64,000 nucleotides of DNA from an uncultured Pseudomonadota bacterium (GTDB taxonomy: Bacteria > Myxococcota_A > Polyangia > Fen-1088). Below the pieces are notes generated by a model, which was not told where the DNA came from, did no database searches, and saw only the letters and a program-made list of their open reading frames with translations. The DNA lies in assembly GCA_963847705.1 (NCBI GenBank), contig CAWKBC010000001.1:64001-128000 (forward strand). The letters are read 5' to 3'. Position numbers and translations under genes: made by a program. Positions 31,404-38,364 of this stretch are shown one piece after another. The first letter of the stretch is position 1, and every line of letters starts with the position of its first letter.

Positions 31404-31421
31404 CGTCTATTATACAAGACA
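31404..31421. promoter_or_regulatory. putative operator, palindrome copy 1 (CGTCTATTATACAAGACA)
   Basis: 15/18 match to TGTCTATTATAATAGACA; ~40 bp upstream of the DUF2325 start. Confidence 0.7.
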
Positions 31422-31505
31422 AGACGCGGCCGCCGTCGCCTGCCAGTCCCGGTTTCCCCGATCTTGGTGGCCGCAACTGGAAACGTCGGGTCCGGCCTGA
31501 TGTAT

Positions 31506-31523
31506 TGTCTAATATGATAGACA
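31506..31523. promoter_or_regulatory. putative operator, palindrome copy 2 (TGTCTAATATGATAGACA)
   Basis: 16/18 match; ~55 bp upstream of the beta-CA/metY/metA operon. Confidence 0.75.
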
Positions 31524-31578
31524 TGCGTCTTTGGGCGAGCTAGCGTTGCCTCCGTCTCGAGACGAAAGGGGAGAGCCG

Positions 31579-32160
31579 ATGAGCCAGATTCTGAAAGAGG
31601 TCCTGGAGGCCAACGGGGCGTATGCGGCCGGCTTCGGGGACAAGGGCAAGCTGGCCCTTCCACCCGCGCGGCGCTTCGCCATCCTGACGTGCATGGATGC
31701 CCGCATCGACCCGGCCAAGCTGGCGGGGCTGAGGGAAGGCGACGCGCACGTGATCCGGAACGCCGGCGGTCGCGCCAGCGACGACGCCATTCGCTCCCTG
31801 GTCATCTCGTACAAGCTGCTGGGGACGCGAGAGTGGTTCGTCATTCACCACTCCAACTGCGGGATGGAGCTCTTCACCGACGAGATCATCCGCGGTCTGC
31901 TCCGTTCGAGCCTCACGACCTCGACCTTCGACGGCAAGGTCTGGAAGGACAGCGGGAAAGGGCCGGGCTCGGGCCAGGCCGACTTCATCGACTGGCTGAC
32001 CATTCGCGATCAGGCGGAGAGCGTCACCACCGACATCGAGCGGATCCGCAACCACCCGCTCGTCCCGCGCGACATCCCGATCTACGGATACGTCTATCAC
32101 GTCGAGACGGGTCGCCTCGTCGAGGTCCCCCAGGCCATCGCCGTCGGCCGCGCCGCCTGA
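31579..32160 (+). CDS. beta-class carbonic anhydrase, clade D / COS-hydrolase-like
   Basis: [47 protein letters not shown] Zn ligands, [10 protein letters not shown]. Confidence 0.9.
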
Positions 32161-32196
32161 ACCGCGCGCACCCCGAAGAACCGAAAGGAGCCCGTC

Positions 32197-33483
32197 ATGT
32201 CAGACCAGAAACTCCGCCCCGAGACCGTCGCGCTTCACGGGGGGCAAGCTCCCGACCCCACGACCGGCGCCCGCGCCGTGCCCATCTTCCAGACCACCTC
32301 GTATCAGTTCAAGAGCACGGAGCACGCCGCGAACCTCTTCGGGCTGAAGGAGTTCGGGAACATCTACACGCGGTTGATGAATCCGACCACCGACGTCTTC
32401 GAGCAGCGCCTCGCGCAGCTCGACGGCGGCGTCGGCGCGCTCGGCGTCGCCAGCGGGCAGGCGGCCATCTCGCTCGCGCTCTTGAACATCGCCCGGGCGG
32501 GCGACGAGATCGTCTCGCTCGACAACCTCTATGGCGGGACTTACAACCTCTTCCACCATACGTTTCCGCGGCTGGGCATCAAGGTGCACTTCGTCCCGTC
32601 GGGCGATCTCGGCGCGCTCGAGAAGGCCATCACGCCCCGCACCAAGGCGGTCTACGCCGAGTCGATCGGCAATCCGAAGCTGGACGTCGCCGATCTCGAG
32701 GCGCTCTCCTCCGTCGCCCACCGGAACGGCCTGCCGCTGATCCTCGACAACACGGTCTCCCCCTACCTGCTCCGTCCGTTCGACCACGGCGTGGACGTCG
32801 CGGTCTATTCAGCGACCAAGTTCATCGGCGGTCACGGCACCTCGATCGGGGGCGCCATCGTCGACAGCGGAAAGTTCGACTGGAGCAGCGGGAAGTTTCC
32901 GCTCATCTCCGATCCGGATCCCAGCTACCACGGCGTCGACTTCATCGCGGCGCTCAAGCCGCTGGGGAACCTGGCCTACATCATCAAGGCCCGCGTGACG
33001 CTGCTGCGCGATCTGGGGCCGGCCCTCTCCCCCTTCAACTCGTTCCTCTTCTTGCAAGGCCTGGAGACGCTCCCCCTGCGGCTGGTTCGCCACTCGGAGA
33101 ACGCGCTCGCCGTCGCCCGCCACCTGGAACACCACAAGAAGGTGACCTGGGTGAACTACCCGGGGCTCGAGTCGAGCAAGGAGCTGGCCCGCGCCAAGAA
33201 GTACCTGCCGCGCGGCGCCGGCGCCATCCTCGGCTTCGGGATCCAGGGCGGGGCGGAGGCGGGGCGTCGGTTCATCGACGGATTGAAGTTGATCTCGCAT
33301 CTGGCGAACGTCGGCGACGCCAAGACGCTGGCCATTCACCCGGCGACCACCACGCACTCGCAGCTCTCGCCGGAAGAGCAGGCGGCGACCGGCGTCACGC
33401 CAGACTATGTCCGGCTCTCCGTCGGTCTCGAGCACATCGACGACATCCTCGCCGACATCGACCGCTCGCTCGCGGCGGTGTGA
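32197..33483 (+). CDS. metY: O-acetylhomoserine sulfhydrylase
   Basis: [32 protein letters not shown] (PLP Lys), [20 protein letters not shown]. Confidence 0.95.
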
Positions 33484-33503
33484 GGCGCCGCCAAGGTCGC
33501 CCC

Positions 33504-36183: not shown

Positions 36184-37252
36184 CGGGCGCCTCGCGCCAC
36201 GGCCAGCGCCGGGCCTGGGCGATCGAGCCGGTCGAAGACGCCGCCGTCGCCGAAGAACTTCTGCTGGGCCTCCTCCCAGTCCTTCGCCAGCAGCGTCACG
36301 GGGAAGAGATCCAGCGCGGGAAACGTCCGGCGTGCGCCGCCAGCGCGCGGGGATCGATCGGGCGGTAGCCGTGCGCCGCGATGAGCTCTTGTGCCGCCGG
36401 CGTGAACAGGAACTCGAGGTACGCCTTGGCCACCGCGGCCGTCCCCTTGCGGGCGACGTTGGCGTCGACCCAGGCGACATACGGCTCGGCCAGGATGCTG
36501 GAGCGCGGGTAGACGATCTCCAGATCGCCCTTGGCGTCCTCGACCTCGCGCAGCGCCTCGTTCTCCCAGGTGAGATGGACGTCGCCGATTTTCTCGTCGG
36601 CGAAGGTCGTGGCGGCGCCGCGCGCTCCCTCGGCCAGCGTGCCGGCGTGGCGATAGAGGTCGGCGACGAAGGCCCGCGCCTCCGTCTCGTCGCCGCCGGC
36701 GTGGATCACCGAGCCCCAGGCCGCCAGGAAGCTCAGCTTGCCGTTGCCGGAGGTGCGCGGATCGGGCGTGACGATGGCGACGCCCGGCTTGGTCAGGTCG
36801 GGCCAGTCGTGGAGCTGCTTGGGATTTCCCCGCCGCACCACGAAGACGATCGTCGAGGTGTAGGGGCGCGAGCCGTTGGGCAGGCGGGCCTCCCAGCCGT
36901 CGGCGACGAGGCCGTGGCGCTGCAACGCCACGACGTCCGAGTGCATCGCCAGCGTCACGACATCGGCTGGAAGGCCGCCGATCACCGCGCGCGCCTGTCG
37001 CGAGGAGCCGCCGTGTGACTGGGCGACCGTCAACGTCTGGCCGGTGGTCCGCGCGTAGGCGGCCGAGAACGCCCGGTCGACGTCCCGATAGAGCTCACGG
37101 GTGGGATCGTAGGAGACGTTCAGGAAATGCCGTGAGGGGTCCTGCCCGGCGAGGTTCTTGGTCACGACGGCCGTCGCCGTGGCGGCGATGGCCAGCAGCG
37201 CCAAGGCGTCGGTGGCCCAGCGCGGGACCCGCCGCGTCGATTCTCCTATCAT
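36180..37252 (-). CDS. sbp: sulfate ABC transporter substrate-binding protein; one frameshift near 36320
   Basis: LNVSYDPTRELY, SHGGSSRQAR, FVVRRGNPK, PRTSGNG, WENEA; corrected end KFFGDGGVFD overlaps the SulP ATG. Confidence 0.88.
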
Positions 37253-37259
37253 GGACAAC

Positions 37260-37277
37260 TGACTATTATACTATACG
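37260..37277. promoter_or_regulatory. putative operator, palindrome copy 3 (TGACTATTATACTATACG)
   Basis: 14/18 match; between the two divergent sbp starts. Confidence 0.6.
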
Positions 37278-37326
37278 CGGGAAGGCAACCGCCTCGCCAG
37301 CCAACCGTCCGTTGCCAGGGGCCTCG

Positions 37327-38328
37327 ATGTCGAAACGTCCGAAACGTCTACCGCTCGTGCTTCTCTCGCTGGGGATCGCCGCCGCGGGCGTGGCGGAGGC
37401 GCGCGACGTGACGCTGCTCAACGCGTCGTATGACGTCACGCGCGAGCTCTACAAGGAGGTCAACGCCGCGTTCTGCGCCGCCTGGAAGGCGCGCACGGGC
37501 GAGACCCTGACCGTCAATCAGTCGCACGGCGGATCGAGCAAGCAGGCGCGCGCGGTCATCGAAGGTCTGCCGGCCGACGTGGTGACCATGAACCAGGCGC
37601 TGGACATCGACCTCATCGCCGAGAAGAGCGGCCTGGTCGCTGCCGACTGGGCGAAGCGTCTCCCCAACCACGCGGTCCCCTTCACGTCGACGATCCTGTT
37701 CGTGGTCAGGAAGGGCAATCCCAAGCAGATTCGTGACTGGGGCGATCTGATCAAGCCGGGCGTCGTCCCGATCATCCCCAATCCCAAGACCTCGGGGAAC
37801 GGGCGCTACAGCTATCTGGCGGCGTGGGTCTACGCGCTCGGCCAGGCGAAAGGGGACGAGACGGCGGCGCGGGCGTTCGTGGGCAAGCTCTTCAAGGCGG
37901 TGCCGGTGCTCGACTCGGGCGGGCGCGCCGCCACCAGCACCTTCGGACAGCGTGGGATCGGGGATGTCTTGCTCACCTTCGAGAACGAGGCCCAGCTGGT
38001 GCTCGCTGACTTTCCGGGGAGCGGTCTGGCGGTGGTGGTTCCGTCGGTGAGCATCCTGGCGGAGAGCCCGGTGGCGGTGGTCGACAAGAACGCCGCCGGG
38101 CACGGAACCACGGCGGTGGCGAGCGCCTACCTCCGTTTCCTCTTCGAGCCCGAGGCGCAGGAGCTGGGGGCGCGGCACTTCTTCCGCCCGGTCGATCCGA
38201 AGATCCTGGCGAAGCACGCCGATCGCTTCCCCCAGCTCCGGCTGGTCCCGGTTTCCGATCTGGGCGGCTGGGCGGCCGTTCAGAAGAAGCACTTCGCCGA
38301 CGGCGGCCTCTTCGATCAGCTCTTCTAG
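37327..38328 (+). CDS. sbp: sulfate ABC transporter substrate-binding protein
   Basis: signal peptide; LLNASYDVTRELY, SHGGSSKQAR, PNPKTSGNGRY, FENEA, HFADGGLFDQ. Confidence 0.93.
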   Translation: MSKRPKRLPLVLLSLGIAAAGVAEARDVTLLNASYDVTRELYKEVNAAFCAAWKARTGETLTVNQSHGGSSKQARAVIEGLPADVVTMNQALDIDLIAEKSGLVAADWAKRLPNHAVPFTSTILFVVRKGNPKQIRDWGDLIKPGVVPIIPNPKTSGNGRYSYLAAWVYALGQAKGDETAARAFVGKLFKAVPVLDSGGRAATSTFGQRGIGDVLLTFENEAQLVLADFPGSGLAVVVPSVSILAESPVAVVDKNAAGHGTTAVASAYLRFLFEPEAQELGARHFFRPVDPKILAKHADRFPQLRLVPVSDLGGWAAVQKKHFADGGLFDQLF

Positions 38329-38346
38329 CGGAGGCCGCCGTGGGCA

Positions 38347-38364
38347 TGTCTATTATAATAGACA
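38347..38364. promoter_or_regulatory. putative operator, perfect palindrome TGTCTATTATAATAGACA (copy 4)
   Basis: exact 18-bp self-complementary AT-rich sequence 18 bp after the sbp stop. Confidence 0.7.

Follow-up and report, generated by a model that had tools for sequence, protein, structure and literature searches.

A 64,000-nucleotide stretch of a myxobacterial genome, referred to below as the window (G000:C1:64001-128000), carries four copies of an 18-bp palindrome that is probably the operator of a SutR/YdcN-like XRE-cupin regulator, whose dimer would repress sulfur-scavenging and sulfur-storage genes until sulfur runs short. The genome, G000, measures 6.1 Mb at 69% GC, and the loci closest to its own XRE-cupin loci carry the titles Polyangia or Myxococcales. 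The likely binder, judged from the sequence comparisons described here, is the XRE-B clade, represented in G000 by one gene on contig C30 and a copy on C25; a third paralogue, XRE-A, probably reads the same site or one shifted towards GTCC arms. An earlier note on the window had taken the palindrome to be an operator-like motif of a sulfur regulon with no regulator in view. Enrichment across the genome and conservation before orthologous genes support the first of these claims; the second holds within the window but not in the genome, where the three XRE-cupin paralogues lie elsewhere.

The four copies have the coordinates and match counts first reported for them (0, 3, 2 and 4 mismatches; Table 1) and are the sole matches in the window at up to 4 mismatches. 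All four are intergenic, and their neighbors are, as described earlier, a DUF2325 gene, a beta-carbonic anhydrase (beta-CA)-metY-metA cluster and a divergent sbp pair. Chance is a poor explanation for them. No match at up to 3 mismatches occurs in any of 100 dinucleotide shuffles, and the whole genome holds 7 copies at up to 4 mismatches, where 40 permuted palindromes of equal composition yield 0-3 each. The copy between the sbp genes has a weaker tandem partner at 37240, and both are preserved in the relative G001 (78% identity over 81 bp). The perfect copy at 38347 follows the sbp2 stop codon and abuts the remnant of a short-chain dehydrogenase gene on the opposite strand. Behind it is a 63-codon frame for which neither the genome nor the fetched loci contain a relative, and no gene can be assigned to the site. 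Its position between the sbp2 stop and the dehydrogenase remnant suggests that it is a leftover whose gene was removed by rearrangement. A sigma-70 consensus scan of window positions 31000-38900 found no promoter, and no RNA holder is on record for the region.

When the four window sites serve as the seed, the matrix converges to a set of 14 sites of at least 21.6 bits, distributed over four contigs, with the next match at 16.3 bits. The training sites are in-sample for this matrix, and the top scores of 30 permuted matrices range from 15.7 to 24.8 bits. A matrix built from the sites of relatives only still ranks 13 of the 14 first, with the 37260 site dropping to rank 17. Matches of 12-17 bits fall within the permuted range (30 matrices, 0-13 matches at 16 bits) and were not counted; the sole exception kept is the 15.6-bit site upstream of the C25 XRE gene, since G001 and G021 have a site at the same position. 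The consensus over 89 distinct sites is TGTCY-RN-TWWA-NY-RGACA.

Eleven of the 14 strong sites precede sulfur genes or operons, and the motif is enriched before such genes throughout the genome. Three of these are in the window, two at DUF2325/beta-CA-metY-metA and one at the sbp pair. The others stand before a rhodanese gene with a YeeE-type transporter; before XRE-A, which is accompanied by a family 2A encapsulin and its cysteine desulfurase; before cysE; before ribBA-ssuE, divergent from a glutathione S-transferase gene; before the gene for a sigma-54 activator that carries a fused SsuA domain; before an arylsulfotransferase gene; and, one site each, before two ssu-type operons (the SsuA-like label of the first gene at C11:55809 was given by eye, on its resemblance to scanned neighbors). 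The remaining three sites stand before a 1-Cys peroxiredoxin gene inside the encapsulin island, before a macro-domain gene and before no gene. At the core assimilation locus on C45 (cysH, cysG, cysI, cysA, rrf2 and cysK, named from their translations), no site exceeds 7.3 bits, and the motif set therefore looks like a scavenging and storage regulon rather than the whole of sulfur assimilation. In some relatives, core assimilation does fall under the motif: L020 (G019:C22) has a strong site between the genes for a 3'-phosphoadenosine 5'-phosphosulfate reductase and a 2-thiouracil desulfurase.

The sigma-54 activator (L003:9845-11950; G000 C11:41844-43949) ends in a whole SsuA-type binding domain, and its matches in G152 and G106 span the activator part alone. 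The macro-domain gene, of the ADP-ribose type (L002:6972-7646; G000 C30:236971-237645), has the operator here and also in G003, G005 and G009.

The motif is conserved among relatives. A pattern allowing one mismatch matches 21 of 24 genus relatives, and sites recur before the orthologues of the DUF2325, rhodanese, cysE, YeeE, peroxiredoxin and macro-domain genes, as the earlier note's reading leads one to expect. Of 136 distinct sites scoring at least 17 bits, 133 are outside called genes and 3 inside, and in 19 cases an ATG follows 0-2 bp after the site; in the DUF2325 loci of four relatives the site ends 1 bp before the start codon. Among the 107 sites with a start downstream, 42 lie within 30 bp of it, and 35 of the 107 have a -10-like hexamer at their center. 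Such centers, together with the sites close to an ATG, fit an operator superimposed on the -10 box, in many cases that of a leaderless transcript. A partner site exactly 20 bp away accompanies 14 of the 89 distinct sites, and no other offset occurs more than twice.

Some features of the relatives' loci are recorded here in their own right. Hydrophobic open reading frames of 51-60 codons start 1-4 bp after strong sites in L009, L010, L016 and L029, from four relatives; the two that were scanned have no Pfam match. A 60-kb island in G001 (G001:C2:1340000-1400000; L236-L238) contains about 19 sites and three XRE-cupin genes along with encapsulin, sbp, sulP, beta-CA and Rieske oxygenase genes and several large proteins without a Pfam match. 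High pattern counts in G067 were rejected as instances of the motif, as they stem from arrays in which copies of an 18-bp palindrome recur every 30-33 bp (G067:C135:691-2733).

Several lines of evidence point to the XRE-cupins as the proteins that bind the palindrome. A site of at least 14 bits is found within -350 to +30 bp of 19 of the 4992 called genes, and the regulators recognized among those 19 are XRE-A, XRE-B, the C25 copy and one sigma-54 activator. The sigma-54 activator aside, these site-bearing regulator genes encode SutR-like XRE-cupins, and no Rrf2 or TetR gene of the kind expected earlier was recognized among them. XRE-B combines an N-terminal XRE helix-turn-helix with a C-terminal cupin (PF01381, E 1e-15; PF07883, E 2e-12), XRE-A aligns across both domains, and each of the three paralogues has a palindrome at its own gene. 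XRE-A and XRE-B have nearly identical recognition helices (SRAMLSQ and SRAALSQ), in keeping with a shared or GTCC-shifted site for XRE-A; the sites before XRE-A and rhodanese genes lean to GTCC arms, and XRE-B is the widespread type.

Motif and XRE-cupin genes also travel together. In the fetched loci, on which the matrix was partly trained, an upstream site of at least 14 bits occurs at 10 of 16 XRE-A genes and 28 of 93 XRE-B genes. With a matrix from G000 only, 79 XRE-B loci drawn from Polyangia, Polyangiaceae, Kofleriaceae and others yield 53 sites in 33 loci, compared with 0-4 for 40 permuted matrices. A survey of 45 genomes of the family, each at least 88% complete, finds the strict pattern in 30, an XRE-B match in 39 and both in 29, whereas the reversed pattern used as a control matches 6 genomes once each. 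Only 1 of the 6 genomes lacking an XRE match has the strict pattern (Fisher p 0.012, for kin that are not independent).

A characterized relative of these proteins is E. coli SutR (YdcN, b1434), described as a regulator of sulfur utilization in work cited by PMC5210515, PMC4797297 and PMC10781874. XRE-A, XRE-B and the C25 copy are its top three matches in G000, with E values of 1e-30 to 1e-37 versus 1e-8 to 1e-11 for PuuR, the only other E. coli protein compared. The proteins share the XRE helix-turn-helix and cupin at 32-35% identity and are reciprocal best matches among the pairs tested. Their DNA sites are also similar in form: an 18-bp palindrome of YGT...TWWA...ACR geometry beside the regulator's own gene. 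Between ydcO and sutR, E. coli has TGTCCGTTATAACGCACA, which scores highest in the 5-kb locus (13.9 bits; 6e-6 per position), and, 32 bp from it, a second palindrome, CGTGCGTTATAGCGTACA. In Dataset S4 of PMC8464067, the strongest of 62 YdcN peaks from chromatin immunoprecipitation with exonuclease digestion is at ydcO-sutR, with a signal-to-noise ratio of 1345, the next being 141. Eleven of the 62 peaks, mostly the strongest, were examined, and yffQ, alsK and others were left out; each of the 11 has, as the best among its seven central positions, an 18-mer that ranks 1-10 of 283 windows and lies no more than 2.5 bp from the peak center (combined p 4e-5, with the myxobacterial matrix). By eye, these 18-mers share GCG-TTATAA-CGC. 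The peak of ratio 1345 presumably centers on CGTGCGTTATAGCGTACA, the weaker-scoring site, given genome-version offsets that we take to be correct.

The two operators are not identical. Length and center are alike, but the half-site is GTGCG in E. coli (GTGCG-TTATAA-CGCAC) and GTCYR, or GTCY(A/G), in the myxobacterium. The recognition helix is SKAMLGQ in SutR and SRAALSQ in XRE-B, and the difference in the inner arm would be in step with these two changes. The scale of the two systems differs as well. E. coli has one dominant peak at the regulator's own locus, not at cys or ssu promoters, whereas the myxobacterium has 14-15 strong sites before sulfur-scavenging operons on five contigs, and three paralogues.

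A number of observations weigh against assigning the palindrome to the XRE-cupins, or against their tie to SutR. G002 (91% complete), G009 (74%) and G023 (80%) have the motif and no full XRE-cupin that could be found, which incompleteness may or may not explain, and G108 has six similar palindromes of the TGTCC-N8-GGACA type (L177, L185, L192) and no XRE-cupin match. Conversely, 10 of the 39 XRE-bearing genomes of the family lack the strict pattern, 65 of the 93 XRE-B genes lack an upstream site at 14 bits, and several XRE-bearing genomes elsewhere in the class have few pattern matches. Six plasmid loci of alphaproteobacterial homologues, several of them beside sulfur genes, contain 1 site, the mean for permuted controls being 0.5. 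Since XRE genes lie inside sulfur islands, the proximity of sites to them is in part shared clustering. As for SutR, a quick tree of 73 rows leaves its position next to the A and B clades as an open fork. Of the two E. coli sites, the one with the better score (TGTCCGTTATAACGCACA, 2622) lies outside the reported peak, and most of the peak 18-mers have negative absolute bit scores.

A pattern with two mismatches, applied to five XRE-bearing and five XRE-less genomes, gave control-level counts in both groups; only the matches on the XRE-bearing contigs of G193-G195 look meaningful. Next to the genes of distant XRE-cupins in G100 (L180, L199, L201) and G146 (L198) stand variants of the form GTCCG-TTATAA-CGGA, which also occur many more times near genes without an evident sulfur link.

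The best structural match of the XRE-cupin in the PDB is 1Y9Q of Vibrio cholerae (E 8e-24 over both domains), a protein for which we know of no regulon. Its crystal structure is a dimer with zinc and D-methionine in the cupin pocket (PMC2684688, PMC7901475), although the D-methionine may be a crystallization additive. Characterized XRE-cupins are described in PMC7901475 as dimeric repressors on core-promoter palindromes next to their own genes. The Pseudomonas members treated there (ErfA, PsdR, PauR, PA1359 and others) thus resemble the present proteins in architecture, dimeric repression and a site at the own gene. They differ in that all but PauR act locally, on one or two targets, and in that no sulfur regulon is described for them in that account, whose main text does not contain the word 'sulfur'.

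By analogy with these systems, each helix-turn-helix of the XRE-cupin dimer would read one TGTCY arm. The A/T center often coincides with the promoter -10 box, where a bound dimer would be in the way of RNA polymerase, and some promoters carry a pair of operators spaced by 20 bp. The cupin pocket would sense a sulfur metabolite, such as cysteine, methionine or a precursor, and the dimer would remain on the operator while the pocket holds, or is without, that metabolite. From this arrangement we infer repression of the regulon and its induction by sulfur starvation.

Other binders have been considered, beginning with the two families suggested by known sulfur repressors. A repressor of the Rrf2 family, similar to CymR or IscR, as the earlier note suggested, would suit an A/T-rich palindrome at sulfur genes, and G000 has two Rrf2 genes in or heading sulfur operons (porin-sbp-cysTW on C8 and cysI-cysA-rrf2-cysK on C45). 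Family-wide, the C8 type also tracks the motif, which is present in 15 of its 17 carriers (Fisher p 0.023), and G001 has a strong site 35 bp before an Rrf2 match. However, none of the Rrf2 genes of G000 carries the site, the best scores in the three Rrf2 loci being 1.4, -4.2 and -0.7, and contig C45 has no site above 7.3 bits. Moreover, in relatives the C8 Rrf2 gene is flanked on one or both sides by a 21-bp motif of its own, consensus TAGTCTATCAAATTGATAGACTA, in 11 of 12 loci. This motif shares the GTCTA half-site with the palindrome, but its spacer is nine bases rather than six and its targets are separate (porin-sbp-cysTW); none of the 15 genome sites scores above 3.2 with its matrix, and the two motifs do not cross-score except for one value of 12.5. 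Among the 30 motif-bearing genomes, 15 have a C8-type Rrf2 and 12 a C45-type (19 at a loose cut-off), and G152, 94% complete with the relaxed pattern at 9 places, has no Rrf2 above the Pfam cut-off. An Rrf2 protein is therefore a very unlikely binder of the palindrome. A TetR-family repressor similar to Corynebacterium McbR, which governs a global sulfur and methionine regulon, appears just as improbable. The earlier note correctly recognized that the palindrome contains the McbR pentamers in opposite order, the McbR consensus being TAGAC-N6-GTCTA (PMC2723105). That arrangement is absent from G000, where GTCTA-N6-TAGAC occurs 4 times, and a dimer would meet a different surface on half-sites in reversed order. 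TetR is also another protein family than XRE; none of the 19 site-bearing genes was recognized as a member of it, although TetR genes were not properly screened.

The least probable candidate of all is an ArsR-methyltransferase regulator, which we take to be of the SahR type. The gene is present in 26 of the 30 motif-bearing genomes, including G002, the one among them without an XRE-cupin match, and sites before it and ahcY score 12.5-12.8 under the palindrome matrix. Yet all 30 SahR-type loci examined have a different motif, ATCC-nn-ATAT-nn-GGAT, under which the 15 genome sites score at most 5.6, and these loci (116 kb) contain 0 palindrome sites of at least 16 bits compared with 29 in 30 XRE-B loci (101 kb). 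Less improbable, though still unlikely, is that the motif is an activator site for the sigma-54 activator-SsuA fusion, a special promoter element of some sigma-factor class, or the site of a regulator outside those considered. The -10-like centers and the site upstream of the sigma-54 activator gene lend themselves to such a role, and the annotation of E. coli SutR as a dual regulator makes activation at some sites possible. A promoter element does not, however, account for the symmetry of the oriented matrix, with its strongest columns in the GTC/GAC arms; sites abutting start codons fit enhancers poorly; and the sigma-54 activator was found in 2 of the 5 motif-bearing genomes tested.

The two rival motifs count as a second, sulfur-linked motif of the genome and a third one. 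Copies of TAGTCTATCAAATTGATAGACTA at C8:101977 and C8:102515 (L205, L212-L223) flank the Rrf2 gene of porin-sbp-cysT-cysW in G000. ATCC-nn-ATAT-nn-GGAT is present as overlapping copies 8 bp apart at C27:618393-618420 and C14:245121-245148 (L284-L315), before the ArsR-methyltransferase gene and ahcY.

Table 1. Operator copies and genes of the window, and XRE-cupin genes elsewhere in G000 (positions are those of the window unless a contig is named)
Feature	Position	Strand	Remarks
DUF2325 protein, target	31035..31361	-	PF10087, E 1.3e-14
Operator copy, 15/18 (3 mismatches)	31404..31421	.	Central TATAAT on minus strand, towards DUF2325
Operator copy, 16/18 (2 mismatches)	31506..31523	.	55 bp before beta-CA start
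Beta-carbonic anhydrase, COS/CS2 hydrolase-like	31579..32160	+	PF00484
metY, O-acetylhomoserine/serine sulfhydrylase	32197..33483	+	TIGR01326, above cut-off
metA-like homoserine acyltransferase	33504..34382	+	PF04204; below NCBIfam equivalog cut-offs
SulP-family sulfate permease, broken across several frames	34375..36184	-	TIGR00815 on middle piece
sbp1, sulfate-binding protein	36296..37252	-	TIGR00971, above cut-off
Weak tandem copy, 12/18	37240..37257	.	20 bp before 37260 site; overlaps sbp1 start
Operator copy, 14/18 (4 mismatches)	37260..37277	.	Between divergent sbp1 and sbp2; 7 bp before sbp1 ATG
sbp2, sulfate-binding protein	37327..38328	+	TIGR00971, above cut-off
Perfect copy, TGTCTATTATAATAGACA	38347..38364	.	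Exact match; no called gene behind
C-terminal remnant of short-chain dehydrogenase gene	38419..38481	-	Beside orphan site
XRE-A, encapsulin-linked paralogue	G000 C30:522018-522629		Site 13 bp upstream
XRE-B	G000 C30:522701-523321		Site 126 bp upstream
XRE-B copy, 89% identical	G000 C25:60258-60878		Site 7 bp upstream (15.6 bits)

Within the window, the beta-CA gene precedes metY-metA under the operator (31579-33483). Its product matches the PDB entries 3vqj (E 2.7e-31) and 3ten (E 1.6e-28), which rank below five plain beta-CA entries. If the enzyme acts on carbonyl sulfide (COS), beta-CA and MetY would together convert COS to H2S and then to homocysteine, which would make a gas usable as a sulfur source. 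COS use of this kind has a fungal precedent (PMC10880591).

The encapsulin locus under the operator can be compared with the SrpI-type system, which is induced by sulfur starvation in Synechococcus (PMC8049743). The family 2A shell and cargo desulfurase genes score over or near the NCBIfam models, and cysE and rhodanese genes are nearby, as in that system. The difference is that an operator and a candidate repressor are present at the locus here, while the main text of PMC8049743 mentions no regulator.

A search of full-text literature found no description of the motif or of a sulfur regulon in Myxococcota; subscription journals and RegPrecise lie outside its coverage. The kind of system is known, here in the form of a multi-locus sulfur-scavenging regulon under a family known mostly for local repressors, and the mechanism is not new either, as repressors that sense a metabolite and bind a palindrome are commonplace. 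What appears to be new is the operator variant, the set of scavenging and storage targets at many loci, and the shared use by paralogues. Sulfur control in myxobacteria, which lacks a description in the searchable literature, now has a named candidate regulator, an operator and a target list. The candidate regulator is attached to family 2A encapsulin loci, and sulfur roles are pointed to for DUF2325, the macro-domain protein and the small membrane proteins. For the SutR family, the comparison suggests one operator geometry from E. coli to Polyangia, with regulons ranging in size from local to genome-wide.

A bolder extension, offered tentatively and with some doubt, is that a SutR-like XRE-cupin could be the master switch of the myxobacterial response to sulfur starvation, the role held by CysB, CymR or McbR elsewhere. 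Two paralogous clades would use one operator, possibly as heterodimers, and the regulon would join scavenging of sulfonates and sulfate esters, a second-tier sigma-54 activator, storage of elemental sulfur in the family 2A encapsulin, and COS capture via beta-CA and MetY.

Two minor features of the genome complete the description. In addition to the broken sulP gene, frame changes are seen at the end of sbp1 (36296 region) and in the encapsulin cargo desulfurase (L001, about 9260-9320); these breaks are likely assembly indels. An abundant intergenic inverted repeat of G000, ACCCT-N3-AGGGT, has 101 copies against 0.4 expected and is probably a repetitive extragenic palindromic (REP)- or terminator-like element.

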